Positions 1-30,883 of a stretch of DNA of 61,326 bases are shown piece by piece (within the stretch, counting starts at the first letter, position 1; the number at the start of each line of letters is the position of its first letter). Location of the stretch: positions 62,001-123,326 of the forward strand of contig QPGO01000209.1 of NCBI GenBank assembly GCA_008632985.1. The letters are read 5' to 3'. Made by a program: the position numbers and the translations under genes. A model generated the notes under the pieces. The model worked only from the letters and a program-made list of their open reading frames with translations. It was not told where the DNA came from and searched no databases. Source of the stretch: Psammoneis japonica (taxonomy: Eukaryota).

Positions 1-665
1 CATGGAATTATCTCGGCGACCTTTTCTGGCAGCTTCTCATGACGCTGCGTTCGGCGTTTTGTCTTCTGGCATCGATCGCACTTGACGCACGTAGAATGCA
101 CCGTAGACCTCATGCCAGGCCAGCAGAAGTGCTGGGCAACAGATGTTTCCGTGCGTGTCTCACCTGGGTGACACAGTGTCTCGTGGCACCATTCAGCTAG
201 CGGAACCTGCAATGACTGTGGCACTGCGATTTTGTCCTTATGACAGATTAACTGTCGTGATGACCCTCCCCCACGATGCGCGCGAATGGAGCAGTCGGAC
301 AAGTCCTCAGCTCGTGAGAGCAGGCGCTTGTCCTTTTGTTGTTCTTTTTGAATGCGCTTGAAGCCAACAGGCAGAGATGCGTCGTCTTGCGTGTCCGCGT
401 TAAAAGCTTCATGCAAAGGACGACTCGATGGAGTGTCTTTTGCATCCGGATTGGCCTCGGAAGGCAAGCTGGGTGCCAGCCGAAGGCGACTAAGAGCGTC
501 AGCGACCAGGTTGTGGGTGCCCTCAACATGGCGTAATTCGGGACCGCATTCTTCGCATGTCAACCGCCAGCGCATAACGCGCTCAGTGTTGAATGCTTTG
601 TGCGCAAGATTTTTATGATCAGCATGTACAATCACACGATGACCGAGGAGAGTCGTTCGAAATTC

Positions 666-1061
666 GACGTGTTCCAGCTCTGGGTGGGACCTCGCACTGC
701 TGAACTGTGACACAATTGTTTTTTGTCATCCGTCGTATGTTTCGCACGCACATTTCTACGTGTTCTGTTATAAAAAATTGTTCCACACTGCCTGTTTTGC
801 GAAGCCAAAGGCTTTCTGTTGTCTGCACTTGTGTCAACAAAAATGCGCTGGGTGTGTTCTTTAATGTCTAAAGAGCACACCCGGGCACACTGCAAAGAAT
901 GTACTTCAAGTGTGGAGGAGGAGACACGTTCGCAAAATTGCCTCTTTTTCTGTTGGCGATCATTCACATGTCCATTGCTTGGTGATTTTACTGTGGAGCT
1001 CGCACGCAGAATTCTGCGGGCCCAATGTCACAAAAAGTCCCACCTGGGACTGGAACCCGTC
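666..1061. mobile_element. 396-bp MITE, GAC...GTC termini, 4-bp TSD ATTC, TpA-mutated copy
   Basis: Imperfect ~25-bp TIRs gacgtgttccagctctgggtgggac / gtcccacctgggactggaacccgtc; attc at 662-665 and 1062-1065; removing it restores the RNase H frame KE-FRT. Confidence 0.92.
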
Positions 1062-1102
1062 ATTCTTTCAATGTCTCCACAATGGCGAGCAATTCTCTCT
1101 CC

Positions 1103-1498
1103 GACGTGTTCCAGCTCTGGGTGGGACCTCGCACTGCTGAACTGTGACACAATTGTTTTTTTTCATCCGTCGCATGTTTTGCGCGCACATTTCTGACTGT
1201 TCCATCATGAAAAATTGTTCCACACTGCCTGTTTTGCGAAGCCAAAGGCTTTCTGTCATCTGCACTTGTGTCAACAAAAATGCGCTGGGCATGTTCTTTA
1301 ATGTCTGAAGAATGTGCCCGGGCACACTGCAAAGAATGTGCTTCAAGTGTGGAGGAGGAGATGCGTTCGCAAAATTGCCTCTTTTTCTGTTGGCGATCAT
1401 TCACACATCCATTGCTTGACAATTTTACTGCGGAGCTCGCACGCAGAAATCTGCGGGCCTGATGTCACAAAAAGTCCCACCCAGGACTGGAACCCGTC
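1103..1498. mobile_element. Second 396-bp MITE of the same family, 4-bp TSD CTCC
   Basis: Same TIRs; ctcc at 1099-1102 and 1499-1502; removing it restores TTE-RELLAIV. Confidence 0.92.
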
Positions 1499-1688
1499 CT
1501 CCGTTGTTGCACAATTTAATTGCGCACTGTTGAGCTTTCTGCCACAAAAGGCGACAGGTTTGTTGTCTTGGGATGTGACTGCTCCCAATTGACATTTAGA
1601 GGCATCGGTGTGCACCTCAAAGGATTCATTAAAATCAGGATGTGATGATAAAACATCATCTGACATTGCCCGTTTAACGGTTTTGAAT

Positions 1689-1792
1689 GCCTCGTCTTCA
1701 ACGGACGTCCACTCCCACTTGACAGTCTCGCTTGCGAGTCGCCTCGTCTTCAACGGACGTCCACTCCCACTTGACAGTCTCGCTTGCGAGTC
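1689..1792. repeat. Perfect 52-bp tandem duplication in Gypsy pol
   Basis: gcctcgtcttcaacggacgtccactcccacttgacagtctcgcttgcgagtc occurs at 1689-1740 and 1741-1792, shifting the frame. Confidence 0.95.
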
Positions 1793-2974
1793 GTGTCAGC
1801 GGAGCCAAGACTTCAGAACGTCCAATCCACGGGTCACGGCAGCAGTTGACCATGCCAACAAATGACCGCAGGTCGCGTTCATTGGTTGGGGTCGCGATTT
1901 GCTTAATGGCGTCAACTTTATCAGGCATTGGTCGTGTTCCGTCTCTGTTGACCAGGCAACCCAAGCACTCCAATTGGGTTTGACAGAAGTGAGATTTGGC
2001 TGTGTTAACTTTTAGTCCTGCTTTCTGGACCCTCAACAAAACTTCTTCAAGTTTGTTGAGATGATCTTCATGGGTGCCTTTCGTCAAGACGAGAAGGTCA
2101 TCTAAGTGCGTTCAAACAAACGACAGATCTTCAAACAAGCCTGACATGCGTTCTTGGAAAATGTCTGGCGAATTGCATGACCCCATGGGCAATGCCTGCA
2201 TCTCACACTTGCCCCACGGGAAGATGAGCATGCAGAGCTTCTTGCTGTCAGCATCCAATCGGATGTGACAACAGCCCGTGTTTAAATCCAGCGATGCAGC
2301 CCACACAAAGCCTTTGAGCTTGAGCAGCACATCTTGGACATGAGGAATCGGATGAGGCAATCGCTTGATCCATTTGTTCAGCTCTCTGAAATCATTGACA
2401 AAGCGCACCATTGAGTCTTTCTTTGGCACGACAAATGATGGAGCTGCCCATTGGGATCGGCCAACGCATTTGAGAACACCGATGCGCGCCAGGCATTCTA
2501 CTTCTTTACGCAGCGCAGCTTCGCACACACGAGGTGCTTTACACGGACGAGCGTGGTGTGGTTCTGCACCCTCCTTGAGTTGGACATGGCAGGGTTCTCC
2601 CTTCCATTCTCCCAATGTCCCATCAAATGAGGACTCATGGCGTTTCAACAGTGCCAAAAGGTCGTTTTGTTGAACTGCAGAAAGTCCCATTGCTCCTCGC
2701 ATCATGTCTTCGAGGCAGGCCGGCGCGTGCTTGGCGTCTGAAATGCGTGAAATCCAGTTGGTTTCCGAAGACAAGGCTTCTGGATCTTGAAGATAGAAGG
2801 GGGTTTCTGCCGCAGCATCTGGGTGCCTCATTGGCGCTTCTCCATTGACCAATGGCCACTCTGTCATCTGTTTGGAGAAGACAATGTCAATGCCTTGTGT
2901 CTCCAGAATGTCACGTCCAACAATCATGTCGCACTTGCCCAACTTTCCGTTGTGTGCGTGGACGGCATGTTTAA

Positions 2975-3508
2975 GGTAATCGCAGAACGAAGGGGCAAAG
3001 GCACGACAATTTGATTTTTCAGGATTTTCTGCTGCACGAGAAACGCGCAGCGCGCTGCGCGCCTCGTCGCCAACAATCGGCGACGTGACGGTGGTGCGTT
3101 GTCGCAACGACAGAGATGACAGCGACGTGTCCCAGCGTCTTTTGTCGTTGTGGACATTTAGTTTGTCATGTTTAAGAATGCATTCAGTCATGAAAGTCCC
3201 CGCGAGCAACCTCCATTAGAGCGCAAAACGTCATGCCAATGAGGAGCTCTGTTTTTCGACCGTCGTTTTATGCATTCGATTGTCAAACGATTGTGAGTTC
3301 GTCCGGGGGACTTTCTTTGCATGCATGTGTTCTGCATGGTGCAATTGATCAATGTGTTAAGTGCCCATCGCAAATTGTCCTCCATCAGCATCTGAAAATT
3401 GTCATCGTCATCGTCGGTGTCGACGACAATTTGTCGCGCAAATCGCAAAAAATGCACGGCAGTCGTCTGTCTGACATTGCGCTGCTGTGCGCTCGTTGTG
3501 CGCATGCC
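2975..3508. mobile_element. 534-bp non-autonomous TIR element, GG...CC termini, TTAA target (Kolobok-like)
   Basis: Flanks ttaa (2971-2974) and tcaa (3509-3512); removing it restores the protease-region frame ELSKTAEL-KHAVH; inverted homologue at 30884-31417. Confidence 0.85.
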
Positions 3509-3870
3509 TCAAGTTCTGCAGTTTTGGACAATTCTGGCAACCGAATTTTAATGGCACAGTCGTTGGACGTGCTGAACGAGCCTGCCACCGCAGTCCAGTT
3601 TGTCTCAGCCGTTGAACGGCTTTGCAGATGCTTGCAGTGTCAACTGTCGAGCAGAGTGCTGCTGGCGCCACCATCTGGTGGTGCCTCAATGGTTTGAGTC
3701 TTGCCCTTGCCATGTTTGGTGTTCACAGCCACAAACAAGATTGGAGCAAGATGAGTCTTTTTAACTTGTTTGCGGGATTGGCCTGCAACACGTGTACGAT
3801 GGTAATTCAGTTGTTCATTCACACATTCATCTGGTGCATTAAAACTGCCTGCATTGTGTCGGACCCCTTC

Positions 3871-5016
3871 TCAGGTGTCCGAATCTTTGGAATCACTCAA
3901 GTTGAGGTCGCGGAAGTGATTGAGCTCCTCCTTGCGTGCCTTGCGCTTTTTCTGAGCGTTGGCAAAGAACTCCTTGACCTTCGATCCGATGAGAGCATCA
4001 ATGTCTTCCTCATTCCAAGGTTTTGCATCAGGCTTGCTGCCTCCGTCATTGGAATGTCCAGTCTTGACACATTTCACGTGGTGCTTGAGCTGACAGCAAT
4101 CCTCCGCATGATGTCCACAGTCAGTCCCGTGTGGCATGCACGACTTCTGGGTGTTCCGTTGGGTCGTGATCAACGACTCAGGATTGTCCGTTCTACGTCC
4201 CCGCTTGCGTGGAACCTGAGCATGTTGGTCCAGGTTACCTTTGGCAAGCTCGACCTGCTCGATGCGCTCGCAGAACTGTACAAATTCGGCGATGGCATGC
4301 GCCAACAGGTCAAAATTCTGTAACGTCATGAACTTCTGCCATGCGTTTGGCACACCGCACTCGAACATGTCGCACAGTTCGTCATTGGGTGATGGTGCCA
4401 GTGCTTCTCCATCCTCCGTCACGGGTGGAAACTGAGAGACATGGCCGTTAATTTCAACAGCCCTCGCGACGCAGTCACGAGTGGAAACCTCTGCGGGCTT
4501 GCGCATGAAGCACCTCAGATGACGCTTCTGCAACAGCACCGCCCCATGTGGGAAGATGCTTTCCTTTAGCTTCGCGACGCACACTGCGTGCGTGGCATTG
4601 GTTTCAGATGCCTGCATGTCAGCGGCATTGTTGAATGACGTCAGAGCATCGCCCTGCAGCAGGTCACGCACAAGGGCAAATTTCGCTGGCCCGGTCGTCA
4701 TGTTTTGTCCTTCGTGCACGCGATCCACGTTGCGCAGAAAGATCAGGAGTGTCTCGCATGTAGCCGCAGAAAGGTGCGGGATGCCCATCTCATGCGTTGG
4801 ACCATCCGGATCAGTGGGGTTGTTGTGCAGTTTGAACGTCTGGTGCTCGCCCTGCTGTGGCTCTTTCTTCTCCGGCCGTGCGAATGGAATCGGTGGCTTA
4901 ATCCGCTTCTTCATGGTCGTTTTGAGATTTGTCGGTCCTGCCAACATTTCGTAGTTTCGTTTCTGCAGATTTCGTTGCCTCGCACAATGTGCGGGAGTGA
5001 CATTGCTGTGCCCCAT
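3871..5016 (-). pseudogene. Gypsy gag, open but Tyr-depleted
   Basis: 381-aa ORF with PIPF..TFKL..NP, LL.GDAL..F, QKR.LR.FMRKP and a CCHC-like remnant (CMPHG..CGHHAEDC); lies directly upstream of the protease. Confidence 0.85.
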
Positions 5017-5910
5017 GTGTGCACCAGGCGCTGAAAAAGAAGATGTGTTGCGACTTTGTCGTTGTGAAAATTGCGAGCTAGTTTAGAGTAGAGAAAGTGG
5101 GATCATGCGAATGGGGAATCTTGCCAAATCCCCATTCGTTCGCATTTGGATCGCATCAAATCGATCGTGCGTTCGCATTGTGGATCGTGTGAATCAAGCC
5201 ATCACGCACCATGCACGAGTGATGTCATCGTGTGGAATCACGCTGCCATCGTGGGCCAGACGACGGGCCAGTGTGCTTCACACGGATGCTCTCTTGGCAT
5301 CCTTCTGGAATTGCCCAAGACCTAGAGCCACGCCCTCCTGTGGTTGTGCTTCCCAGGTGCGCGTTAACAATGCTGCTTTGCCGCGTACAAGAGGCTCATG
5401 CATGGTCTCGCCGTGTTGTCCAGCAGCAAGGCATGCTGCAATCTCATCCCTTTCATTGAAGACAAACACTTGACCATCATTTTTTGTTTCAAAAACGTGG
5501 CTTCTGGTGTGTGTGACATTCATGGAGCTTTCCTGGGCTCTTCCAAATGACAGCAGTTCTTTGCTGTCTCCAGTGGCGGCAACGGCACAGCTGGAGTGCC
5601 TGGAACTTGAGAGTTGTTTGGAAGATGCTCTCCAGTCTTCAAATCATGCTCTGCATCAGCATGGCATCCTGGAGATTTGAGGAACTCTTGTTTGTTGTTG
5701 CCATGTTGGACATTTTTCTCCAAGGGATGATGGCGAATTGTTGCATGACTGAAAAGAGTGGAGGGACAGACAGACCAACTGATTTTTTGCCGACAACAAG
5801 GAAAATGCATCATGACCGAAACAAGGCACTTTGGCACCATCTACAATGAAATGAACTCCAAAAATGCAGTGTGATTGACACAAAAGAATGAAACAAAAAC
5901 ATGTTTCTAA

Positions 5911-5975
5911 GACCCGTCGCAGTCGTGATGAAGGGGTGCAATTCGGGGTGCAATTTTGGGGTGCAAAAACGCGCG
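5911..5975. mobile_element. Single terminus of the PIF/Harbinger-like family seen at 30017, TpA-mutated
   Basis: taa|gacccgtcgcagtcgtg..ggggtgcaattcggggtgcaattttggggtgcaaaaacgcg matches 30017-30080 with gtgtaa>gtgcaa three times; the other end was not found. Confidence 0.75.
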
Positions 5976-7544
5976 ACACCCCTCAAAAAAAGTTGCACCA
6001 CATCTGATTTTCCACTCCATCTCAACTTGCCAATGGAAAGAGACTTGAGACATCAACAGAGCACTGCTCCATTTTGTGGCTTTTGGCATGTGCACATTGC
6101 TGCTTTGGAAAAGGATCAGTGCAAGGATCTCTTGCTTGCAAATTGAGGGGCACACAAGGTGACCTTTGGCACAACCTCAACTGGGGTGCAGATGTTGGCT
6201 GGGGGCCAGCAATGTTTTTGAGGGGTGCAATGGTGGGCATGGTGGGAGCCTGAGATTGGTCATGCCACAGGCAAAGGAGGACATTGAGACCTTGGAACAC
6301 ATGATGGCTCTTGCTGTGGCTGTCTCCCATGCTGGGCAGTGCGCTCATTGTTGACGCACCAAAAGTTGCTCAGCCAGCCAGCACACACACAAAAATGTCA
6401 AAACAACCAAGTGTGATGTGAGGCCCCTGGAGCACTTGATCTGTGCTGGAGAAGAAGGGGGGGGGCCATGTGGTGGAGTTTCCAGGATGTCCTTGCTTGT
6501 CAGAGCAAGCCACCGCTTTTTTGCTCTCTCTCGGGCCATGGGCAGCAATGTCAGCCTGTGTTTGAGTGAACAAGCAACGTTGCTTGCCAAAAATCCTCCA
6601 GCTTCTGTGGGCATGCCCCACACATGTGAGGCCAGATGTGGTGCTCAGTTGAATGACAAGCTGCCCCATCTTGCCTTTTGTGAGCACAGCACACAAACCA
6701 CCAGCTTGCCGGTTGGAGAGAGCCCAGCTTGCGCGGCACTCGCATCTCATTTTTCAGTGTTTTGTTCACAAACCCTGGGGGCATTGCACAACTCAGCCTT
6801 GAGCACCGTCAGACAACAGCCTGCACTTCTTTGGAGTGTTTGGCAGTTTTTTGCTTTTGAAAATCATCCAAACTTTTGGCGCTTCGAGCCACAATGACAG
6901 TGCCCCAAGATTCCCTCGCCGGCGCATTTCAGCTTTTCTGACTCCAGAGAAAGGGCTGAGATGTGGATTTTGTTGGCTGAGAAAGCAGGTGGCTTCCAGC
7001 CAGAGTTGAGATTTGTGCTGCAGCCACGACTGTGGATCAAGCCTGACGCTGCGCTCAGCCATGAGTTTTTTCCTGGTTGAGAGCGTGGATGACAGAAACA
7101 GCGCTGACAAGCGGCCCCATCGAAGCCCAGAAAGCAGCCGTGTGATGATCTCAGACATCCCAGCACATGACCCACATCAAAAACCACTTTCAACGAAGAA
7201 GCCCACAAACAAAATGGGGGCATCGAGGCGCGCTTGTCTGTTGGGGGAAGGGGAGGGCGCGTTTGCCCCCCAAAGCTGCCACAGCATTTGAACAAGGTTG
7301 TTTGTCAGTGCCTGCACCTGATCACCAATCACAGGCAAAAACAAGAACACCATGCACTGTGATCCAGGCATGACGATGATGACGGTCATCGACGTTTCTC
7401 AAAAAGGCGGCTTGCCGTCTTCAAACTTTTCATGTGCGCAAGATTTTTGGCGCACAAGGAGCACAAAACAAGCGAGAGTTCTTTGAAGATGGACCACCTC
7501 CACCACAGACTTGTGGCTTGCTGTTTTCACATGCCAAAATCCTT

Positions 7545-10203
7545 GTTGCCTGTTGACACGGACCGAGGGATCATGCACCGGGAAACGCTGAGGCAACAAC
7601 ATTCTGCATCATTTGACGGCGGCGCCGCAACAAAAATGACGAAGCATAAGTCATACGAAACATTTATCGAGAAATGGTTAAATGGTTCGAGACACTTTCT
7701 GGATGTAGGACATGAGATGTTTGTGTGAAAACGCATGGGGAGAAAACAAAACATTACTCTGGCGATGCGGATAGAGCCGCAAAAAACTTTACAACCGGAA
7801 GAGCAACGATACCGATTTCAAAAGAATGCGTTTCAAAGCCTCCGTTTTGACCTCTCTTGCCACGGTTGTGTGGGCACAAGGTAAGCTGATGACACTTTGC
7901 TCTGCGTGTCTGTCTCTTCCGAGATGGAGAGACGTTCTGGTTCATTTTGCGGCTGACTTCTGATCATGCGAAGCCCTTTATCAATCATCTTGCTAATGTC
8001 AAATCACTGCCGCCTCATCATCAGGCACAACCAAGGACAAGGATCATGTCTATCCACGCTTCACGGTAAGTCCAAAAAATGAGCAAGGGTTGTTGTGTGG
8101 CCAGCTTGACATCACAGCTCACGCTTTTGATCTTCTGCCGAAGCCCCTTGCAGGTGAAGCTTTGCAGAATGAGAAGCCGTCTACAAGCGATGAGAAGCCC
8201 ACTGAGCGAAAGCTCAGCAGGCCTTCTCGCCCAGTAGAGTTCCCTTATGGCAACCCTTGTGTCAATCTTCGGCGAGATTCTGATCCTCACGATGGCTACA
8301 ACAGTGACGGATGGAAGCTCGTCAACTTTTGTAGTGCGGGTGCCACTGGTCGCTATCCAGCGCAGAGACCAGACTGTCACCACAATGATGACGATTCTGC
8401 CTACCACACGCTCAAGTTTCCCTTTACATTTTATGGAAGGGACTTTAGATATGTCTACATCAACAACAATGGCAATCTGTCATTTGACCGTCATAACAGC
8501 AAACCGAGCTTTACAGTGAATGACACACCCATTATTGCTCCGTTATGGTCTGATGTGTACACGGGAGAAGTCCCTTATTATGGGTGTTCGGGCTGTGGTC
8601 ATGTGTGGATGAAAGAAATGTCAGACAACATGTTAGCAGTAACGTGGGAAAACGTCGCCGATGGCTACCATCCAAACGATGATCGATTGAACTCCTTCCA
8701 GGTGTTGATGTCAGACGGTTCGGACCCTTCGATGGGCTTGGGCAACAACATGTGAGTCTCCAAAATGGTGCGTGTCTCAACTGTTTATATTGTCAATGGT
8801 TTTTGCTGACATGAAACTTTTGATTTCTTTTTCAACATAGCTGCTTCTGCTATGCAGACATGAATTGGTCGATAGGAGGTAAAACTGTGGGAGTTTACAA
8901 GGGAGACGGCAGAACGTCCTTTCAGGTTACAACCCCTCCGTTTCCAACCGTGTTCTTAAGTTCTCTCGAAGGCAAAGGCTTCTGTTTCGATGCTGCTGCG
9001 GAAGAGAACATCCCTCCCATTCCCTTTAACTTTCCATCAGATGATAGGATTGACCTCAAGGGATGTGCCTCGATTGATACAGAGTTTAGCTTTCTCAGTC
9101 CTGAGGTTGGTCAGTGGACCACGGTTGAGGTTTATGATGCTCCTACTGATGTAATGACTGTTACAGTACAGAATGGGAACACTGCTACTGTTCGTCTCCA
9201 AATAACTCCCACCGTGAATGCAGACTGGACGTTGAACTTTTTTGTCAGAGACAGCAAGGGAGCTGTTACAGAAAAGGCTCTCAAGGTTACTGCGTCTGGC
9301 TGCCATGATCCACATGGACCAATAATGCGCTGCTCGGACCGACATTTGCGAGCTTCTAACAATCGGTGCCATGCTTGGACCACGATTGATAATGGGTCCA
9401 GATCCCGCAACGGTGCGGCAGCTCGATTGACACTATGGCCGCTTCCGCCTTACCCATTGGGTGTCACCAAGGTGACTCTATGGGCCGCCGATCAATTTAG
9501 AGATGGTAAGACAAACTCTTGCACAAGGACTGTGACGGTCGATCCACCTCGATATGGTCACTGTCCAATAACTCCAGTCATGTACTGCAAGGACGTGAAT
9601 AGAAAAGCCCGTTTCTACCCACTGTGCGACTATTGGGCGACCGTTGATGATGGTTCTCATGACCCCAGAGGTGGTAATTTGACTCTTGTCCAAAACCCTC
9701 CGCCTCCCTACGGCATTGGATACACAAGAGTGACACTCAAGGGAACGGATAGAAACGGTGTATCCACGACATGCACGGCATCTGTGAACGTTCGAACCTC
9801 TGGTGGCCGTTGCAACATATAGCCGTGGTACGATGTGCGATTAGAGGAAGAACTAGGATTCTGCATATATATTTTTCGGTCCTGAACTGGAATGGCATCT
9901 GCCAAGACAAAGTTTCAATTCGATAGCCAGTGTCGGACCGATACATGTTTGGATATATACGTCGGAAGGGCAGTGAGGTTGATGACGTTGCATGTGGATA
10001 CACATTTTAATCGATTTATTGTGCATCACTTGGACGTAATCGGGGTGTTTTTGCACACCTTACGCGGTGAACCAAGGATGATGACACTCTATAACATCAT
10101 GGCGAGGTTGCAAGCTTGCTTGATCCTTAGTTTTAGAATAATTTATTAGGCAAACCTCGTGAGCAATTCACCAAGTAGCATGGTTCAGCGGTCGTCCATG
10201 CAG
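7545..10203. repeat. Segmental duplication unit containing the NIDO gene; inverted copies at ~27425-29950 and ~51150-53860
   Basis: Upstream sequence, introns and ~380 bp of 3' flank align by eye between copies; copies B and C also share the adjacent SDR pseudogene. Confidence 0.9.
7826..9822 (+). CDS. Secreted nidogen-like (NIDO) domain protein with two C-terminal HYR/Ig-like repeats, paralog A; join(7826..7880,8025..8065,8105..8751,8841..9822), 574 aa
   Basis: Signal peptide MRFKASVLTSLATVVWAQ; three GT-AG introns at the same positions in all three paralogs with frame preserved; NIDO motifs NDDDS..L.FPFTFYG..YINNNGNLSF, IAPLWSDV, VTW..V, NSFQV; repeats ending PPYP.G.T.VTL...D..G...SCT..VTV. 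Confidence 0.88.
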
Positions 10204-10599
10204 CGTTGTGTGAGAACTGCCTGACTGCCCAGGAGGGCACCTGCTGACAAGGCCAGCAACGGACCATTGTCTGCCACTGGAGTGCTGCACGGGACCGTCA
10301 GCCCAAAAAGGGCACGGGGTCCATCAAAGGACCAGCCACAGCTGCATCAGCAAAGCAGTCCAAAGGCTTGGGGGAGCTGGAGGGTTGACGAGAGTCATGC
10401 ACAAATGACTTGGCCAATGGGAAAAATGAAGCACAGGGATGAGGGACATGACCTGGGGCCAATGCAGGCACTGAATCCAACAATGCAGGTGGTGGGACTG
10501 TGTCCCCGGTGGCGGCAATGCTTGGACCAGATGCAGCCGCAAGGGCTGGTTCTGACCAGGTGAGGTGGCAGCGGCAGTGGCTGAGGCTGGCGGGTTGCA

Positions 10600-12400
10600 T
10601 GCCCTTGTGAGTGCCAGCGCACCTCCACTGATCATCGTGGCCCGAGCGGCATCACACTCTGATGGATCATGGAGTTGGGCACCATTGTCAGCAACAATGA
10701 CTTGTGTGGGAAGTGCCACGGTGGTGGTGGTCAGACTCTTGGCAGCGGCAGAGAGGCCAGCGGCCATGGCAACGTCCTTGGAGGCAAGGTCTGGACGCAA
10801 ACCGCCTTGCTGTTTTGACAGTTGCGCTGACCATGTGGGAACAGGAGCCCCCCTGTGATGGGCAGAAACAATCCTTCCAGACAGAAGGCACTGGGGAAAA
10901 GGAGAGCAGGAGCCCACAACCACACTGCTCAGGGAGAGAAGTTGGCGTGACAACTCACGCTAAAGTGCCAGACACCAAAGCAGCATCAGAGCCGCTGGGG
11001 TGTCTGCTTGAGCTGACATGAGCATGCGGAGTGGCTGGTCATCAGCAGTGGGTGGGTGGGTGTTCCATGGGCAATGGCAACTTTGGCAAGGAGCGCAACA
11101 CACCATGGTCAAATTCCTTGAGGCAAAATGTTGTTGCAAATGATCAAGCAGTGCAGGAAAGCACTGGCATCCCACTCAATGGTGTTGGCATGCTGGGTGC
11201 CACCTGCGAGGATCATGATGTGGTTGCTGCCATCAATGTGGTGCATGTGGCCAGTGCTGCAGGGTGCCAGGTTGCTTGAATGGGTGGTCGGCCCTTGTTG
11301 TTTGTGCTCACATCAATTTTTGACATCAGAGGGTGGACCAGCAAGAACGAACATAAACACAAGTGTGGATCTGCCAGAGGTGGACATGGTGGCAGTCACA
11401 TTCATTTGATGGCTTCTTTGCAGAGCTTGGGGCCTGGGATGTGCTTGGCGAGTGTGCCTTGGCAAACTCAGCAGCTGTTCCTGCAGGTGTGCTGGTGGCA
11501 GATGGACTGGCATCCACAGGTGCTGGGGTCTCAGCAGCAATGCTTTGAAGGAGACAGCATTGGCGTGGTCCCAGCTGTTGCATCTGGTTCTGGTTCTGGG
11601 GTGGAAATGGAGGTGGCTGGCACCAACAGCAACAATGATTGTGTCTTCTCCACTGTTGACAGCTGTGGTCATCACTTTCAGAAAAGTGGCGATTGAGTCA
11701 GATGTTGCTTGTGGATTCCCAGGGTGTGGACTTGGCACTGGCTTGATCCATGATGGGTCCAATGCACTCAAGGTCCATGGCAGTGTGTGCCTGTGGCTTG
11801 ATGATCTTGCCAATGAGTTGACAGCATGAAAATTGCATTGACGTCATTGTGGGTTCCGGGTGGTGCAAAATCATCCAGAATGACCAATGGATCTGGGGTG
11901 GCATCAGAGTGCATGTCATTCAGGTGAGTGTGGACATTGCTGTGATGCTCCGAAGAGGGGGTCTGGCATTGCTGGCATTCTTTTTGTGGCTTGGGTTTGT
12001 TGGCCAACAGGGGGCTGCACCACCACATTCAGCGGAAGTGTTGGTGCAACTTTTGAATGCTGTGTCATCTAAACCCTGGAAGTGAGACAAACAACCTGGT
12101 GCACAGCCTGCACCATTTGTGAAAGAGCTGCCTGCAAAGCAGCTGAACAATTGCCCCCTCAAGTTAGATCAGTGTTTGTGGTGACAGGAGCTTGCAGAAT
12201 GTCAGGGTCAAGAGAGGTCATCCCCATGTTCATCCTGGAATTGCAGTGTTTGTTTTTGAATGCAAAAACTGTTTGCATTCTCACCCCTGGTCAAGCACAA
12301 ATGAGAACATCAGACACTGTGGTCAAAGCACAACAATGACAGCACCATCGACATGAGTCCAAAATGCAGTGGTCTGTCTGCAAGCATTTGATGCATGTGT
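10600..12400 (-). mobile_element. Heavily decayed TE block, possibly Copia-derived
   Basis: Near-total TpA and CpG loss; only faint motif echoes such as DVKN and HP.P.T. Confidence 0.3.
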
Positions 12401-13589
12401 GAATTCAGATGCACCATGGACACAAAACAAACAGGAGTTGTCAGACGGCCCACCTCCATCACAGACTTGTGGCTTGATGTTTTCACCATGGTGAAGCACA
12501 GTGAAATTCAGGAAAAATCATGCAAATCATGAGCTGTTCATCCAAATTCGAGCCAAACAAATGGCAAATGACCCCCCTTAAAACATGATCTGGAATGGTC
12601 AAAAAAGGGGTGTGCTGGGGATGAGCAGTTGTCCAAAAGACTGCAGGTCATCTGAACACCACCATCAAAAAATGGTCTTTGTTCTCTGGAAAACGAACAT
12701 TGCCCACAAAATTTCATTTGTAAAGCAACAAGAGGGCTCGTGGTGATTTTGTTGTGTGAGCTTTGCAACCACAAAGGTTTTTGTGCTCAATGACTGGCAC
12801 AAACTGCTCAGCGAAGTTTGTCACAAACTCTGCAACTTTCCGGGTTTTTCAGGTGAAAATGGTGGCTGTCATCACATGCCATCAGGGCTTGTGTGTGTTG
12901 TGCCCTTCCATGACTGTGACAAAATTTGACAATTTTTGGTCATCAAAAACACATCGTGGTGTCAGAACCAATGTCACCCACACAAAATTGAACAGTGTTC
13001 CAACCTTTCTTGCAACTGCAACAGATGCAAATTTGTTCAGGTCACTTTGTTGAGGATGGGTCATTGTTTGGTGGCATTTTTTCAATGGCTTGTGGTGATT
13101 TTTTTTAATTTCCTTGCACTTTGCCCATGTCATTTTGTTGTGCTTCATCACCCCCAAACACTTGTGTGTGTGTGTCCAGCCCCCACCACCAGGGCTGTTG
13201 GAGCCACACATGAGCTGCACCCACCAGCCTTCAGGCACCAATTGCTGCAGCACTTGGCGCAGTTGTCACATTTGACAAACTGCTGTTTTTCACCAAAATT
13301 GGGCTGTTTGTGACAGACAAGCTGCAGCTTTCCAAGAAAGGCCGACAACAACTGGCATTTGACTGGTCACAAACACATTTGCAGTCATCATTCCAGAGAT
13401 CCCAAACCCCCACATTTGTTGTCCATGCACTCTGTGATGTCTCACAAATGGACAAAGAGCAAGTCCAACCCATTGCTGAATTTTTTTGGCAAATGAGCGC
13501 ACTGTTGGTGCAGCAAATCAAGGTGGTCATTTTTTAAATGTCAGCGAGCTCTGAACAAAATTGACTGCTGAATGACGACCCATCCTCAA

Positions 13590-14088
13590 GGTGGTGTGGG
13601 TGCAAAAGTGGACCAGATTCCATGTGCACAGAAAATTGGTGTGTTTTTCACACAAATTGCCAAAGTCACCTTGCCAACTTGAGCCCTCTCCCAGACAATG
13701 GAAACTTGAACATCTCATGTGACTGGTTGTCCAGACTGATCAGCTGCGCTCCCCTTGACTTGGTCCAGCATTGAGACAAACCACATGTTTTCATGCATTT
13801 GTCATTTGCTGCAGCTCTGCAAAAGTTGGACATTGCAATTTTGGCACCTTTCTGATTGGGCTCAGGGTGTGCCTTCAAAAATGCATGAAAACATGTGGTT
13901 TCTCTCCACTGACAAAAGTTGAGGGGGAGGGGTGCAGCCAGCAGGCAGTCTGGACACTTTGTTGTGTGAAATGTTCAAGTTTCCATCACAGAGGGTTCAA
14001 GTTGGTGAGGTGACTTTGGTGATTTGTGTGGAAAATGTGCCAAGTTCTGTGCATGTAGAATCTGGCCCACTTTTGCACCCGCACCACC
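13590..14088. mobile_element. 499-bp foldback MITE, ~210-bp arms, GGTGG...CCACC termini, TCAA flanks (mutated TTAA)
   Basis: 13590-13801 is an imperfect reverse complement of ~13877-14088; tcaa at 13586-13589 and 14089-14092. Confidence 0.82.
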
Positions 14089-14135
14089 TCAACACCACAT
14101 GCGCACGGCACCACACAGTGTGCACCGTGCCTCTA

Positions 14136-15798
14136 CAAGCAAAAAACCGGTCTGTCCTCCACCTTTTGGCACCTCTGTAAAAGTTGATTTTGTTTCCAAA
14201 ATTGATTGGTTTTTCGCTGCACAATGCTTCTCACATCTTCCAACATTGTCAATTGACATGCTCCCATGCCTGCATTTGCCAGGTTCATGGTTCTGAACAC
14301 CACTGCTGCTGTTGCAAGAAGGGCCTTTTCTTGCTCCAAGAGGACAGACCGGTCGTCAGCAGAATTCCATGTGATGGTGCACCGAGAAATTCACACAGTT
14401 TTTTTTTGCATCCGACATCAAATGCTTTGCCATTGTCTCTTGCAACAGCAGCATGGCAAGTCCACAGTGCACACTCTCATCAAATCATGTGGGCCCATGA
14501 GGTCTCATTTGTTGTTGTTTTGTCTTGTTGCTCACATTGTGCATCCAGGTGTTTGTCACCATTCGCACTGACACAGCACAACTTCTAACTTCTTGTTGCC
14601 ATCAGTGGAGAAATCAACAAAAGGCTGCGGCAACACATGTCATGCTGGAATCCAGTGAATGCATGAGCTGGACATCCTGCTGTGCAAGTTGGCGATGCAA
14701 TGATTCTGTGAAAAAGAAAAAGGCAGGAATGCACGACACACAGGCACATTGTTTGAAATGTGTGGTTTGCTGCTTGTGGGGTTGTGGGGGGTGCCAATGC
14801 ATCTAAAAGTGTTTCTTTGACACACAACATGTCCTCCAAATTCTCTGGGCACTGCCGTGTGATCTTTGCATGGGTTTCCTTTGCAGCTGGGCATTTCATC
14901 AATTTTCTTCCAGTGGAAAAGGCGATGGATTTGCTGGCATGCTCAATGCCGCCGTCTTCAAATGACAAGTTCATTTGAAAAGCCTTGCACGCCAGACACA
15001 CCGGTGTCTTTGTCTCACATGTGTCAGGTTGCACTGCTTTTAGGACACGCTCCTGGACAAATGTGAGCTCCCAAAGATGAGGGCTCACCTGGGTCTTGAC
15101 GTCAAAGAAAAATTCGGGTGGGGGTGACACGGACTCCGATCGCGGCAGCATTGATGTCATTGTTTCGCAAGAGACTGGGAAGGGTGGAATTGCACCCAAA
15201 AATTGCATTGACAGCAACATCAAGACCTGCCTCCTGTCTCTCGTTTTGCCTCCACGATGTTGACAACCATCGTTGTGGTTTCTTTCCAAGCTTGCTTGGC
15301 AGCCAGATCACAGGTCGCGCTGCTTCTGTTTTGGTCACAGTCTTTCATTGATGCAATGATCAAAGAGGATGCACCATGGTGGGCTGGATGTGGCAGTTGC
15401 ATTGACACAACAAACAACGAGGACACACCATGCGTGGGGCTTGATGTGCAGTGGTTGCAGCGAGCAAGAGGGTTTGTCGGCTTGTCAGAGGGGCAGCACA
15501 ATTTTGAATTTGAAATGGACAAAGTTAAAAACATGTGACAATGCAGACAATTGATGATCAAAAATCTGTGTGAATTCTCAAACCATGGATTTTTTTTAGA
15601 AAATGACGATGCGCCGTCTTTGGCCCCCAACTGTGCCGTGATGCAATGCTCTTTTATCCCGCTGTTTCCACAAGGATCTCTGTTGACCTTCTGACCGATG
15701 CCAGCAGATGGGGTTTGCATGTGAAACAATGGGAAGCCACTGTTAGAGTGGTTTTGCACAGTTTGCTCTTGCAAGAGGACAGACCGGTTTTTTGCTTG
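14136..15798. mobile_element. 1.66-kb TIR element with TA TSD (Tc1/mariner-like), degenerate interior
   Basis: Perfect 24-bp TIR caagcaaaaaaccggtctgtcctc; ta at 14134-14135 and 15799-15800; internal minus ORF 14585-15289 not recognisable. Confidence 0.75.
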
Positions 15799-16843
15799 TA
15801 CCGGCAGCACGTAGAGAGTCTGCTGCACGACATTCATGCAGCGCACCGAGCGACGACGTACGTGCGCGACGGCAATCAAACGAACTGGCTGCATGCAGTG
15901 CCCAACTGACACACAGACATTGCAACGGACTGCAGCACACAAAACCATTTCGAGTCAACAACACACTCAACACACTAAAATCAGCAGGGAAGCCTGCGGC
16001 AGCTCTGGGGTTTTCGATCGTAGGGAATTCCTTGTTTGACCCTGAATTTCCTTGGATGAGGAAAGACAAGGAAACCAGATGAGGAAAAATTGATTGTCTT
16101 GATTTGCTGCGTAGTGACAACTAAAACATGATCCTTTCATCTGCTGCTAGCGGTCGACAACTTGTCTAGAGCCTGTAGCTACTAACACACTTCAACATGC
16201 TACATTCAACGAGTGAGGTGGACGCCGTTGGGCACCACATTCTTGAGGACAAAGAGACAAGATGCTCCCATGTTCTCTTCCAGCATGTTGTCTCCAATCG
16301 AGTCCACAACTAGCTCAAGTTGGGAGAAGAGACATTGAACAGTTGCACTTGTCAACAAGGAGCTTCTTGAGCTTTCTCTGGCTACCCGTATTGTCCATCG
16401 TCGACAATGGCCATCACGACGAGTTGGGTTCCGTGTCGTGACGTGATGCTGCTGTACGTATGTCGCTGGATGGTCGCGCGCCAAATGCACGCGCAGAGGG
16501 ACAGCTGACGTCATATTCTCCGTAGAACTCTACTTAAATCTTAGTACAAAGATTTTTCCTTATCTTCTTCCTTATCTTGGGCTGACCACTTCCTTACGAT
16601 CGAAAACCCTAGAGGCAGCTCATAAAAAGCACCGCGTCTTCGTCTTGTTTGACCTTGCAGAAGTGTCTTCGAGCGAATGAATCGCGAACCCGAACCGCTT
16701 TTCCACTCTTCTTTTCATGGTGAAATGGCATCTTTTAAGTGAGAAAGAGCGAGAAAGACCGATAAATGACTGAGAGGGTTTCGAAATGTGTCATGAAACC
16801 AATGAGAACAGCGAGAAACGCGTCCAAACATCTGTCTTGATGA

Positions 16844-17071
16844 ACCGACCACCGCCTGTCAATTATTGATGTAGGACAACATTATTTATTGTTGGCACTG
16901 ATAATTGTTCGCGAACATTTATGCTTTGGTGACCGAGATGCCCAAGAACTCAATCGCGGAATTGGTGACCGACCACTGCCTGTCAACAAAATGTTGACCA
17001 ACATTTATTGTTCGCACTGATAATTGTTCGCCAACATTTATGGTTGGGTGACCGAGATACCCAAGAACTCA
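16844..17071. repeat. Imperfect ~120-bp tandem duplication upstream of the LVIVD gene
   Basis: accgaccac.gcctgtcaa...atttattgtt.gcactgataattgttcgc.aacatttatg...ggtgaccgagat.cccaagaactca occurs twice. Confidence 0.85.
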
Positions 17072-17163
17072 TAGTCGATTGGTATCCTATAAATGTTAGG
17101 TTGCGAAAGTCATCCACTGATTCCATAAAAGAAACGAAATGAACAAGCAGCAAAAGTGAAACA

Positions 17164-19346
17164 ATGAAAGTTTGTAAGCAAAACTGGTTTTGCGGCTGGA
17201 TCCTTGCGGTTGCAGTCCTCCCTCGAGCCTGTGATATGGTTGAGGTTCTTGCTGAGACGGGGACATGGAACGATGAGGTAAGTTCCTATAAACACGTCTT
17301 TATCGACCGCATGTTCAATGTACAAGGAACAAAAAGTTTTGGCGTTTAAGCTGATCTTGTCCCGGCTTCTGTAATCTCGTAGGCTACGCCGCAAGAAGAA
17401 ATTGATTCCAATTCACGGCGGCTTCAACCTGCATCAGATGGGGTCCAGGGAGGCGCCGCATTTGGACCAGATGATACCAACGAACCCCAGAAAAGGCTGC
17501 TCGCTACTGGGCACTTCCATCTACGAGCAAGCGGTTCTAATCCAAGGAGCCTTCAACCTGTGTCAGACCGGGTACAAGGAGGCGCGTTTGGAGCAAATGT
17601 AACCAGCGATCCCGAGAAAAAGCCGCTTTTTACTGTAAGTTTTCACCCACGAGCATTGTACAGCAGTCACGTTCAATTCATTATCGACTTACCGGTTGTC
17701 GCTTTGACTGCCAGCATGTAGTTCCGTACGAAGAAGCAGACGCCAAGGAGGAACAGGACCCTTCAATCGTAGCACGACGTACTGCTCCGGAAATTTATCC
17801 TCAGTCCGGGACGCAGTTGCCTAACCTGGTTTGGAGCCCACCCTACAGAGTGAAAATTCATGTGGAAGGAACCTACGCGTATCTCGGCTTGGATCAATCC
17901 AATAAAGTGTTGATCTACGACGTTTTGGATCCGAGAGCGCCCGAATATGTTCAGTCAGTTGACACGTGCTTTGGGCGCGACATTCGTGATCTGTGGGTTT
18001 CTGGCAATCACTTGTGGGCAGCACACCGTTCCGGTGGACTCACAATGATTGACATCTCGGATCCCAGAAAGCCCGTGATCCCACCAAAATGCTTTCCTGA
18101 AACATACTGCCACAAGTGTCTGATCTCGGAGGGAAATTACCTCTTTTACGCTGGACATCACCTCTCAATCTATGAGATAACGGGTGATTCTCTGCGTCTG
18201 ACTTCACGTAGCGCTCGCATTCCCGGGGGCGGTCGGGAGGTGGTTGTTAACGGAAACTATGCATACGTGGTCAGCGACAATGCTGTTAATGCTCCCGTCA
18301 ACATATACGATGTATCAAACAAGAGGACAGCGCCTTCTCTGGTCAGATCTTTCAGACCACCTGCAGGAAAATTTCCCCCATATCAAATGATTGTCTCCCG
18401 TGATCGAAAGAGACTTTATGCAACAGCAAGAAATGCCAGTGGTTTTGGCGAAGGATTCTATATCTTCGACATTGACGGTGCAAAGGCCGTCAATCCTCAA
18501 CTCCTTGGCAGTGTCACGAACCACCCGCGTGCGTTTCATATTGCACTTGATGACGATAACAGTTATCTCTACGTCAAGGAACACTGGGGGGTGGCATCTT
18601 TCTCCGTCTACGACGTGAAAAATGCCACCTCGCCGAGAGTGAGGGATCGCGTACACCCGAACCCCTACAAGCCAGTTGTCTCCCACAAGGGGTTCCAAGA
18701 TGGCGGCTTGTGGTACTCAAACGAACATTTATACACTGTCGAGGGAAATTATCTAATCATTTACAATGCTCACATCCGTTACCGCTTCTGGTGCAAAGGA
18801 CATTTCTTGAATCTTGATCGCGTTACCAAGAAGCCACGGAAAGGGTCTTGTTATGCGTACGACACGCTGTACCAGGATGTGTGCCCGCCAGTCAACACGA
18901 GGGTTGCCAACCCTCAATATTCTCTTCCTGGTGGCAACAGCCCCGACTGTCCTTTGCTTTGCTGCGGAAGTGGGGGCGCGGGTGGGACTTGTCCCTTCTC
19001 GCCGGACAATAGCTGGCGGAAGCCGTTCCCAACAGTGATCGTTCCGGCATGCGACGGCAAGGAAATTCCTGATGAATGTGAGGTTGTGTTAAAGACGAAT
19101 GAAGCTGGCCAGCCTTACAAGACATGTTCTGTTCGGGAAGGCAACTGGATCTTTCCATCTATCTCGTGTTGGACTGGCAACGACTTGACGAGTGAGGTTC
19201 TCCTGGGACGGAATACAAGGGTTACTTTGTGCCGCCATGCTGGCGAATGCGCGTATGGCGGTGAAATTTACTCGCGAGGGAGACTCTCTCCCCCCATGTC
19301 CATTCGATTCCCTGGTCTCTCTGAGCTACGCGTTCAATGTCTATAA
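17164..19346 (+). CDS. Secreted LVIVD-repeat (beta-propeller) protein with Cys-rich C-terminus; join(17164..17277,17383..17634,17715..19346), 665 aa
   Basis: Hydrophobic N-terminus; two phase-0 GT-AG introns join cleanly onto ORF 17817-19346; repeats VEGTYAYL..VLIYDVLDPRAP, VSGNHLWAA..LTMIDISDPRKP, VNGNYAYV..IYDVSN, FYIFDIDG..NPQLLG, VYDVKNATSP. Confidence 0.85.
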
Positions 19347-20059
19347 TGCCGGTACGTAATGCGACTTTATCGGTTTCGGGGGGGCAACAACCGTTTCCTC
19401 CCTAACATATTTTTCGGATCCAATGAAAATATAAATCTAAAATCGCTCAAGAACATTATGTTTTTATGTGCGCAACAAGTCTCCTATTAGTCCGTCTCTT
19501 CAATAACTGTGTCTATGAGCTGTCATGTGCATTGTTGTTGTCTCTTGCCACTCTAGCTAGAGAGCAGCTCCTTATGGAGTCGAACAGATGTTGTTTCTTC
19601 TCTTGAGGATGGATCATCGGGATGAGGACGGACAGTTGCGGACCCACACTTCCACCCCGCGTGAAAGATCTGCGTGAAAGTTGCGCCATCGTTTGGTCTT
19701 GGTGCCATCACAAATGAATGCTGCTGCTGTGACAGCTGAGAATTGGACAACAGACAAACAAAGTGTTGAACAGCATCAACAGGCTATGGAATTGTGTGTC
19801 AGGCATGCTGCTGGGGCCACTGTGTCAGCAACAGTGGACCAATTGCTGACAGCAGACAATTGCTCACCTTTGTGACAGTGTGTCAGCATTCACTCAGTCC
19901 CTTCCAACTGACACCAGCTCTGCTCGGGTCACCAGATCAACAGACAAATGCAACCTGATGCCACCCTGTTCAAGAACAATTTCTAATTTGGGGATGGAAA
20001 AAGCCACATCCAGGCAGCAAACCCATTTGGTGTGTCCCCCATTGGGGCTCTCCATGAGA

Positions 20060-22800: not shown

Positions 22801-23399
22801 CTTCAGCATGTCACTGATCTCCATCAGTGGGGCTGTTCCAGGTCATCCATGGCAGCAAAACCTTGACAAGTGATGTGCTGCCTCATCTGGTTGTTGCATC
22901 CACAGCACGTTAGAGTGGCTGCAAAGGCTGCAGCAGTGGCCATGGTGGTGCATCAAAATGAAGTTTTTGCATTTTGACACATGAGTTTCCACTTGTGCAA
23001 GTGGGAAATTGTGAGGTGTGCAGCTTGCTTCAGCAAACACCACTGGCCAACTGGCAAGCATGCCAGGTCACCATTTGGTGTGATTGTTTGCACACCAATT
23101 GATGCAAAGCTGATGATCAAGTGTCCAGACATGCATCTCTGTGTGATGTGATCATGAATTGATGGCGTTTGTCACTGTGCTGTTCCACAAATGTTCACAT
23201 GCATTGGCTGACACATTCCATTCATGTGATCAAACACTTTGCACTCCAAAGACACATCTGTCTTGTTGGAAGGGGAGCATTCATGACACAAAGAGACCCA
23301 CTTGGTCATGTCTTCTGCTGCTTTCCCATGAGGTTTGGAATGGTTGCACTTGCAGGTGGTGACACAGTGGCCTTTTGTGTGGCATTTGCCAAACAGTTG

Positions 23400-25200: not shown

Positions 25201-25344
25201 CAATGATCGTTGACCTTGGCGCACAAAATTGAGTTCACTGAATGTCACACACGTGGTGGAAAGAATCAGTGCATTGCTCCCAATCATCTGTCCATCCATC
25301 CAAATTTTGCGTGCTGCACACATGAACCACTCTGACTCACGCTC

Positions 25345-26015
25345 AATCAATCAACATCCCTGCTTGTTTTTCTCAAGCTCTAATTTGCACAGAAGCCACA
25401 CGCTGGTTTCTGTGCATTTGCGTGCATTTCATGCCAGTTGCATTGCAGTGGGGTGTTGTTTGCCGGCCCAGATGAACTCTTCCTTTGACGTGAAACATTT
25501 TTCACAACAACCAGCACAGACTGCCGGCTCGGTGGACAAGTTTTGAGTGGTGCAAACACGCAGATCCTACGTTGAATTTACAGTGCTCAGATTTATTTGG
25601 TGCAAATCTATGCAGCATTTTGCGCAGGGTGCACACGGAGCATGAGCAGGGATGTTCCTGCTTGTGCACAGAAATGCGCAGCAAGGTCCTGAACATTTTT
25701 GATGGCACAGAACCTCACCATGGGCTTCTGCCATCTGCAAGAAAGCTGCGTAGATTTGCACCAAAACACATCTGAGCACTGTGCGTCTGCGGCAGGATCT
25801 GCATGAAAAGAACTCGAAACATGTCCGCCGAGCCGGCAGTCATGTGCCGGCTGTCATGAAAAGCATTTCATGTCTGAGAAAGAGTTCGCAGGGCCGGCAA
25901 ACAACACACCTCTATGATGCAAATGGTGCAAAATCTGCGCAAATGCACAGAAACCAGCCCATGGCTTCTGTGCAAATTAGAGCTTGTGAAAAACAAGCAG
26001 GGACATCTGAAATCA
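25345..26015. mobile_element. ~670-bp foldback element with ~290-bp imperfect arms
   Basis: Arm pairs 25355-25445/25915-26005, 25519-25570/25792-25851 and 25581-25616/25746-25781 share a centre near 25680. Confidence 0.8.
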
Positions 26016-30797: not shown

Positions 30798-30883
30798 TTA
30801 GGGTGACGACTGCTGTACTCTCTAGCTAGGGCCCTAGACTGTGACTTGACACTTCCACTTTGTTTGGAGATTTCCTCTTTCAA

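Follow-up and report, generated by a model that had tools for sequence, protein, structure and literature searches.

Probable targeted TA hypermutation behind the lost catalytic motifs of a dead Gypsy element in Psammoneis japonica

Natural enzymatic A-to-G mutation of DNA is, to our knowledge, almost without precedent, since the genome defences and antiviral deaminases that we know of act on cytosine. Here we describe a stretch of 61,326 nucleotides from Psammoneis japonica (assembly GCA_008632985.1, contig QPGO01000209.1, positions 62,001 to 123,326; hereafter the window, with coordinates counted from its first letter), in which a Ty3/Gypsy retrotransposon has lost its catalytic motifs through changes at the dinucleotide TA. 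In our literature searches TpA-specific hypermutation was found in one 2026 preprint only, by Mettrop et al. on Bigelowiella natans (bioRxiv 10.64898/2026.01.13.699255), and the window is a new, extreme and retrotransposon-centred instance of this phenomenon.

According to that preprint, mutation-accumulation lines of B. natans gained 302 new nuclear single-nucleotide mutations, of which 231 were located in two viral regions integrated into the genome; the rate there was about 6e-7 mutations per site per generation, and only some of the lines were affected. With few exceptions these viral-region mutations were A>G or T>C, and every one of them was on TpA (bioRxiv 10.64898/2026.01.13.699255). 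In the same source, TpA-depleted coding sequences of B. natans are enriched for reverse transcriptase (RT), endonuclease-RT and DDE domains, 124 clusters of at least three depleted 1-kb windows are counted genome-wide, and an ADAT2-like protein is proposed as a DNA adenine deaminase. Our locus resembles this system in the A:T>G:C change at TpA, the involvement of both strands, the foreign-derived domains and the loss of TpA with gain of CpA and TpG. It differs in that the new mutations in B. natans lie in inserts from nucleocytoplasmic large DNA viruses (NCLDV) and virophages, whereas here the changes are known from differences between copies. The reported Rho_TpA of the NCLDV insert is 0.45, whereas here TA stands at 0.09 over 46.5 kb, with long terminal repeat (LTR) retrotransposons and miniature inverted-repeat transposable elements (MITEs) saturated. 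The words 'retrotransposon', 'trinucleotide' and 'flanking' do not occur in the text of the preprint, and the preference for TAY and the loss of catalytic tyrosines described below are likewise absent from it.

Other known processes share single traits with the one seen here. Fungal RIP (repeat-induced point mutation) is also a dinucleotide-specific transition hypermutation at the DNA level that leaves transposons riddled with missense changes and spares genes. However, RIP turns CpA into TpA and raises TpA/ApT, and the direction here is the opposite: the TA-poor DNA has a TpA/ApT of 0.11 and a (CpA+TpG)/(ApC+GpT) of 1.77, opposite to RIP by its usual thresholds. RIP also makes stop codons, whereas the process at this locus removes TAA and TAG. 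APOBEC3 (G>A) and ADAR (A>G) are deaminase-type hypermutators that leave inactivated retroelement copies, but they hit the cDNA minus strand or RNA, on one strand and before integration; here both strands are changed, non-retro elements are affected too and paired copies have diverged in place. Finally, CpG decay by deamination of 5-methylcytosine also ends in TG/CA. It is visible in the older TA-poor segments (CG observed/expected 0.06-0.35) and caused a TGA stop in the Gypsy element, but it runs on a separate and slower clock, CpG being kept at 0.72-1.09 in the Gypsy element and in a Copia element of the same window.

The element in question is a degenerate Ty3/Gypsy internal region that occupies 3-5082 on the minus strand and runs off the window start, as delimited with open reading frames (ORFs), Pfam and tblastn. 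The Pfam domains on the minus strand follow the order RVT_1, RT_RNaseH_2, Integrase_H2C2, which is that of Gypsy pol, and the element is collinear with 120 full-length relatives, to which it is 47-56% identical (tblastn). By descent it is a Ty3/Gypsy (Metaviridae-type) element. It is dead rather than active, because its catalytic motifs are lost and because a TGA in frame, a duplication of 52 bp and two inserted MITEs interrupt it.

The protease stretch lies at about 3640-3870 on the minus strand, like all parts of the element. Its active site (3661-3681, CCA CCA GAT GGT GGC GCC AGC) reads PPDGGAS, for LLDSGAS in the relatives (column frequencies L 0.99, L 0.88, D, S 0.89, G, A, S), and its departures are two T>C changes before A and one A>G change after T. 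The RT catalytic motif (2097-2108, CAC TTA GAT GAC) reads HLDD, for YIDD in the relatives (Y 0.99, I 0.88); the Y>H step is a T>C before A, and I>L is a transversion. The RNase H motif (1499-1558), where the minus-strand frame reads PVAFCGRKLNSAQLNCATTE, is PVAFCGRKL..NCATTE, for KPIAFYSRKL...YTTTE in the relatives, and all five of its departures are A>G after T. The initial annotation, made from the letters of the window, had named these three degraded motifs, and they were confirmed in the sequence and in the ORFs. All nine departures that it named (L>P, L>P, S>G, Y>H, I>V, Y>C, S>G, Y>C and T>A) obey the TA rule, and its proposal that T>C and A>G are mixed on the same strand under one rule holds in the three motifs and element-wide. 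The interval it gave, 2097..3681, takes in the protease and RT motifs and leaves out that of RNase H. It took the RT motif to be YLDD, but the relatives have YIDD, which places the I>L transversion outside the rule. The altered residues are not shared by the relatives, all 120 being compared, which carry Y, L and S at these places with frequencies of 0.88-0.99.

For this comparison the query was the RT frame with an X at the stop, run against longer proteins, which gave 233 proteins at E <= 0.001 among 7999 scored candidates. The best 120 of the 233 were taken as relatives; all are full-length pol proteins, 895-1497 aa in length, encoded on metagenome-type contigs of about 4-10 kb. Aligned to the element with tblastn, they gave 435 high-scoring segment pairs and 815 aligned codons, each covered by at least 40 relatives. 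A column was called conserved when one residue was present in at least 70% of the relatives (403 columns), with a stricter set at 90% or more, and for each departure we listed the single-base ancestors that encode the residue of the relatives.

The most striking loss concerns tyrosine. None of the 19 conserved tyrosine columns is kept (11 are now Cys, 7 His and 1 Trp), against 301 of the 384 other conserved columns (Fisher p = 1.2e-12). Phe (15/17), Asn (10/12), Asp (20/21), His (8/9) and Gln (10/10), by contrast, are well kept. Ile is kept in 10 of 28 columns, with 11 changed to Val, and Thr in 10 of 21, with 7 changed to Ala; both replacements are expected when an A that follows the T of the previous codon becomes G. 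The initial annotation had suggested counting the fraction of differences that the rule explains. At 70% conservation, single TA>CA/TG steps account for 44 of 102 departures, the others being 8 CpG-type changes, 8 other T>C/A>G, 2 other C>T/G>A, 15 transversions and 25 that need two or more steps. At 90% conservation they account for 31 of 49, beside 6 CpG-type changes, 2 other T>C/A>G, 1 other C>T/G>A, 4 transversions and 5 of two or more steps. Where a single T>C step away from the residue of the relatives could explain the departure, the next base is A in 17 of 19 cases (binomial p = 2e-8), and where a single A>G step could do so, the preceding base is T in 27 of 33 (p = 5e-13). Any other context of neighbouring bases accounts for 13 departures at most, and where it does reach 13, the tyrosine events are being counted again from their other side. 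We also considered an active element selected to avoid TA, a reading ruled out by the loss of catalytic residues.

That the motifs were destroyed specifically by TA changes, as initially annotated, goes too far, since the element is also disabled by a CpG-type nonsense change, the duplication and the two MITE insertions. The RT (Pfam RVT_1, 1698-3215) is split by the in-frame TGA (2112-2114) into pieces at 2112-3215 and 1698-2111. The relatives have Arg at this codon (0.95), the C>T step is of the CpG type, and in 15 of 15 contigs of other copies the base at place 2114 gives CGA. A perfect tandem duplication of 52 bp (1689-1740 and 1741-1792, minus strand) shifts the frame between RT and RNase H, and the duplicated peptide SETVKWEWTSVEDEA is found in two frames. 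Since the two units are without any difference, the duplication must be recent relative to the other damage of the element. RNase H (RT_RNaseH_2) lies in a stop-to-stop frame at 1397-1795 on the minus strand, with its coding part at 1499-1741, continuing at 1062-1100. Two MITE-like elements of 397 bp, with terminal inverted repeats of about 25 bp and 4-bp flanking duplications, are inserted within RNase H: one (A, 1102-1498), with CTCC on both flanks, sits in the RNase H coding region, and the other (B, 665-1061), flanked by ATTC on both sides, lies 40 bp away in the same orientation and is 91% identical to it.

Both DNA strands are hit about equally, without a consistent strand bias. The sense-strand ratio of TG to CA is 0.86 in the Gypsy element and 1.22 in the Copia element, and the steps reconstructed on the Gypsy sense strand are 27 A>G and 17 T>C. 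As a side observation, these 44 events fall into 15 same-strand runs for 21.9 expected (P = 0.019). So few runs may indicate patches with repeated hits on a single strand, while the order of the tyrosine events taken separately, as well as that of ten TG-versus-CA differences between the two MITE copies, appears unclustered by eye.

The trinucleotides are depleted to different degrees, the ratio of TA-poor to TA-normal density per strand being 0.03 for TAT, 0.11 for TAC, 0.16 for TAG and 0.24 for TAA. Among the surviving TAs, TTAA makes up 23% (5% in normal DNA) and CTAA/TTAG 22% (7%), while ATAT is at 0 (9%) and ATAC/GTAT at 1% (11%). Among the places of difference listed, other genomic copies of the element also keep TA most in TTAA and TTAG contexts (shares of 0.46-0.65). 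The base after the target A in the 44 Gypsy events is T in 16, C in 15, G in 7 and A in 6, a count that is biased to Tyr codons. Within ORFs, TA in codon phase 1-2, which can only be TAY there, is the most deeply lost. From these contexts we infer that the target is probably 5'-TAY-3' on each strand, in the order TAT > TAC > TAG > TAA.

In chemical terms, the A:T pair of 5'-TA-3' was converted to G:C, yielding TG or CA according to the strand hit. Tyr codons (TAY), numerous NTA codons and T|A junctions between codons were lost in this way, and hence the catalytic motifs. By analogy with B. natans, an enzyme could deaminate adenine to hypoxanthine in the DNA of silenced or foreign chromatin, with replication completing the change. 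The tRNA adenosine deaminases naturally target an A that follows U33. Taking targeted hypermutation as given, we see about an even chance that adenine deamination of DNA is its chemistry. A modified thymine at TpA could do the same work with no adenine deaminated: 5-hydroxymethyluracil, 5-formyluracil or a base-J-like derivative would mispair with G. In dinoflagellate DNA hydroxymethyluracil is found above all at TpA and TpC, and thymine in oxidised form can pair with G. TA is self-complementary, so that in the duplex a T>C and an A>G at TpA amount to one event, and all of our counts fit both chemistries equally. We nevertheless regard the thymine route as unlikely. Our literature search found no paper that links bases of the hydroxymethyluracil type to TpA loss, and the sole study of the TpA signature favours adenine deamination, albeit without proof (bioRxiv 10.64898/2026.01.13.699255).

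The depletion is not particular to the Gypsy motifs to which it was first tied. Over the whole window the observed/expected ratios are 0.24 for TA, 0.58 for CG and 1.57 each for CA and TG, but this average hides two classes of DNA. Among 122 bins of 500 bp, 88 have a TA ratio below 0.25, 28 are at or above 0.45 and only 6 lie between. The TA-poor part amounts to 46,493 bp (76% of the window) with TA 0.09, CG 0.48, TG 1.68 and CA 1.70, and the TA-normal part to 14,833 bp with TA 0.63 and CG 0.94. On a 50-bp TA map the normal domains are 7600-10150, 16000-19650, 27100-30850, 48150-48550, 48900-49300, 50950-54100 and 60400-61326. Their edges are sharp at this resolution, and at 30,850 the edge falls where a second Gypsy fragment begins (30883-31330; 76% identity to 3061-3509). 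The TA-normal domains carry host genes, namely three NIDO/HYR-domain paralogues, an LVIVD-repeat gene and a 2OG-Fe(II) oxygenase. Tyrosine makes up 3.0-5.8% of the residues of these genes and 0-0.8% of those in the long frames of TA-poor DNA.

A mutational bias against TA acting on the whole genome, with selection alone keeping TA in genes and the Gypsy element representing unselected DNA at equilibrium, could be proposed for this pattern. In its favour, every gene-free part of the window is TA-poor, and between the host paralogues a TA position shows a transition about 2.4 times as often as another A/T position does (36/206 versus 85/1174). But the bias would have to erode positions that selection hardly sees, and it does not. 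In the host ORFs, TA is at 0.67 of expectation in phase 1-2 and still at 0.58 and 0.55 in the largely synonymous phases 2-3 and 3-1, and the 7.2 kb of normal domains outside long ORFs keep 0.64. The corresponding values in the transposon ORFs are 0.06 (9 TAs for 154 expected), 0.27 and 0.22. The bimodal bins with 6 of 122 intermediate, and the sharp edges, one of them at the start of a Gypsy fragment, also contradict an equilibrium. When the three host paralogues are compared and their changes polarised by majority, TA>CA/TG makes up only 17 of 372 changes. A bias of the whole genome is thus very improbable. Because synonymous and non-coding positions near genes keep TA, its loss is targeted rather than genome-wide, and host genes are spared. 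Repetition alone is not the trigger, for the host paralogues (83-88% identical) and an inverted repeat of 96% identity both keep their TA.

The TA loss and the CpG decay can be separated in time. In the young Gypsy and Copia elements TA is reduced to 0.06-0.27 of expectation (ORF phases), with CpG still at about 0.9-1.0 (0.72-1.09 in the 1-kb map); in the Gypsy region the TA ratio per kb is 0.14-0.34, with CG at 0.72-1.09. Both dinucleotides are lost, CG being at 0.06-0.39, at 6-7, 11-15, 20-25, 32-33, 40-48 and 54-59 kb. Since the young elements have lost TA but kept CpG, TA loss must be much faster, with CpG decay following. The stretches in which both TA (0.00-0.09) and CpG (0.06-0.34) are nearly gone and CA/TG reach 1.7-2.1 (20001-25000, 11001-14000, 32001-33000 and 42001-48000) contain no protein family that could be recognised and are presumably old repeats that are past both decay processes.

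The Copia element (33478-40108, minus strand, Pfam RVT_2) gave a second, separate set of conserved columns. It is bounded by an LTR-like pair of 185 bp (33478-33662 and 39924-40108) and has an open frame of 1512 aa (33621-38159, minus strand) with 0.3% tyrosine, which is open because TAA and TAG have been erased. The last 1199 residues gave 38,079 matches at E <= 0.001 in a representative library, of which the best 150 were used. Among 260 columns conserved at 70% there are 37 departures, 17 by the TA rule and 3 of the CpG type. Conserved tyrosine is kept in 3 of 15 columns, with 5 Cys, 6 His and 1 Met (p = 4e-9). Here the next base is A for all 6 T>C options, and the preceding base is T for 11 of the 13 A>G options. 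The YVDD motif of this element survives. The 150 Copia relatives include two nearly tyrosine-free proteins from other assemblies. Of 12 conserved tyrosines, P0397 (Logan assemblies, 380 aa) has kept 0 (5 Cys, 5 His, 1 Trp, 1 Arg), and P0393 (JGI/IMG, 267 aa) keeps 1 of 7 (3 His, 2 Cys, 1 Met) and has HVDD as its RT motif. The signature therefore exists outside the present assembly. A metagenome-contig search with P0393 gave 67 pattern matches and no relative.

Paired copies within the window tell when the changes may have occurred. Independent hits on one TA in two copies produce a TG-versus-CA adjacent double difference (hereafter a discordance), which is rare under ordinary mutation. The two MITE copies differ by 25 events: 10 discordances, 6 TA versus TG/CA, 3 of the CpG type, 2 other transitions and 4 transversions. 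The 16 events of the LTR-like Copia pair are 5 discordances, 3 of the TA type, 5 of the CpG type, 3 other transitions and no transversion. In the host-gene paralogues, by comparison, about 284-311 events include 118-127 transversions, 29-38 TA-type differences and 4-12 discordances. A discordance could conceivably also arise from CG, but each MITE has 18 CpG for about 23 expected, and it is TA that is lost (2 left for 25.8 expected in A, 8 for 26.5 in B). The discordances point to independent changes in DNA after the copies had separated. On this comparison of copies, the conversion would have occurred in chromosomal DNA with the copies already in place. The lower TA content of MITE A would fit insertions at different times of an ongoing process.

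These pairs also bear on an origin in RNA. It would mean that double-stranded RNA of the retrotransposons was edited from A to I in the manner of ADAR and that reverse transcription fixed the changes before integration. In its favour, the elements are retrotransposons and, as the B. natans preprint states, ADARs act preferentially on an A preceded by U (bioRxiv 10.64898/2026.01.13.699255). It predicts, however, A>G on the sense strand only, and we see 17 T>C beside 27 A>G, the TG/CA ratios being 0.86 and 1.22. MITE-like elements of DNA and unclassified repeats show the changes to the same degree, the copies of the LTR-like pair and of the nested MITEs went to TG or to CA independently of each other, and a near-complete loss limited to TA is unlike hyper-editing. 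We hold this origin to be highly improbable.

Other genomic copies were looked at in the public run X1, which carries 44% of the element's sampled 31-letter words. On the element, 8179 X1 contig pieces align at 80% identity or more (1372 at 99% or more, 2036 at 95-99%, 3146 at 90-95% and 1625 below 90%), so that the Gypsy family, and the MITE most of all, must be highly repeated. Look-alike contigs reach their greatest depth over the MITE region, with 137,940 at 886-1062. The difference places comprise 114 A>G, 102 T>C, 140 C>T and 125 G>A, and 3-9 of each transversion type, that is 481 transition places and 49 transversion places. Among 40 of 536 X1 places listed, 16 have CA/TG in the window and TA in 0-65% of the other-copy depth. 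The shares of TA thus vary, and the copies must differ in the extent of their TA loss. Among the same 40 places, 11 have TG/CA in the window and CG in the other copies, mostly with shares of 0.9-1.0. An artefact of sequencing or assembly, with systematic miscalls at modified bases in repeats, could be argued from the fact that only 44% of the sampled words occur in X1, but it is the least credible explanation, since every site reads as a clear TG or CA within a mosaic whose amino-acid consequences are coherent, the same classes of difference recur in contigs of other copies, P0393 and P0397 from other assemblies show the same loss of tyrosine to Cys/His, and the B. natans mutations were called from Illumina data (bioRxiv 10.64898/2026.01.13.699255).

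Taken together, we consider it very likely that a targeted hypermutation of TA at the DNA level caused the death of the Gypsy element. The conversion acted alike on retrotransposons, MITEs and unclassified intergenic repeats, and it halts within about 50 bp at the edges of gene-bearing DNA. Several points weigh against this account. In the Gypsy element 58 of the 102 departures lie outside the TA rule, and the CpG-type stop, the duplication and the two insertions are disabling too. Neither an enzyme nor a candidate gene for it is present in the window, and T>C at a modified thymine gives the same double-strand outcome as adenine deamination. The mobile origin of the other TA-poor segments is not supported by Pfam, 0 of their 68 ORFs of at least 130 aa having a match. 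The 185-bp pair is assumed, not proven, to be the LTRs of the Copia element, and the MITE copies could have diverged before insertion. X1 is possibly the source sample of the window and hence not independent support. The TAY preference assumes that the original tetranucleotide make-up of the repeats equalled that of gene-bearing DNA, and any ongoing activity may be inferred only from differences between copies.

In a wider sense, the TA loss could be the chemical mirror of RIP, a genome-wide defence in which a DNA adenine deaminase is guided to silenced or mobile chromatin and acts on TAY, on both strands and to saturation, in a lineage other than that of the chlorarachniophyte B. natans. We put this forward tentatively, as somewhat less likely than an even bet. 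If it is true, adenine-based DNA editing would be a widespread eukaryotic defence, and the loss of TAA and TAG would leave dead DNA full of long open frames, by which gene prediction is misled and from which new genes could arise. The window shows the TA process run to completion on transposons, with conserved tyrosines and catalytic motifs gone. Its TA-poor domains offer a definite starting point in the hunt for the enzyme, which may be a natural editor of adenine in DNA. For surveys of other protists, a bimodal TA observed/expected ratio together with Tyr replaced by Cys/His in transposon ORFs may serve as signature. With TAA and TAG lost, TGA is almost the only stop, and long frames therefore stay open on both strands of the mutated DNA. 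This is also a warning, as the 68 ORFs of at least 130 aa without family match are spurious frames of this kind that gene predictors would call proteins.

The remaining parts of the Gypsy element are a gag-like ORF (3871-5082, minus strand) without significant Pfam family, a diverged stretch at about 2946-3507 on the minus strand and the N-terminus of the integrase with its zinc-binding domain (Integrase_H2C2; frame 3-725, part 3-665, minus strand). A match of the gag ORF to Pfam 'Toxin_35' (E = 0.0016, 18.8 bits for a cut-off of 26.8) was rejected as a chance match from a Cys-rich stretch. The 3' end of the element lies beyond the window start, and the depth of other copies climbs past 4957, which does not define an LTR. 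An exact 34-base word of the MITE had no match in metagenome contigs.

The TA-poor domains are as follows. The first (1-7599) holds the Gypsy element and 2.5 kb beyond it. That at 10151-15999 is also CpG-poor (CG 0.11-0.67) and has no ORF with a Pfam match. The domain at 19651-27099 includes 20001-25000, where TA is at 0.00-0.07 and CG at 0.06-0.13. The longest, 30851-48149, begins at the Gypsy fragment 30883-31330 and includes the Copia element. It is followed by 49301-50949 and by the CpG-poor 54101-60399. A scan of the window with Rfam at gathering thresholds and a tRNA scan found nothing. Among the host genes, the 2OG-Fe(II) oxygenase ORF has a best match of 54% identity. The matches of the LVIVD ORF are 20-35% identical and mostly of bacterial type, and its clusters in a protein atlas are bacterial LVIVD proteins, at <0.9. 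Neither of these two ORFs had a match from NCBI, which is indirect evidence that the host is probably distinct from the annotated B. natans reference. The three NIDO/HYR paralogues (7571-10202, 27427-29917 and 51153-53843) are 83-88% identical and have normal TA. The stretch 26377-29920 matches 50099-53687, and one end of this match (about 0.6-0.9 kb; 26377-27000 and 50099-50950) is TA-poor in both copies. The inverted repeat of 390 bp (48179-48567 and 48905-49294, 96% identity) has arms with normal TA and a spacer of about 340 bp that is almost free of TA.

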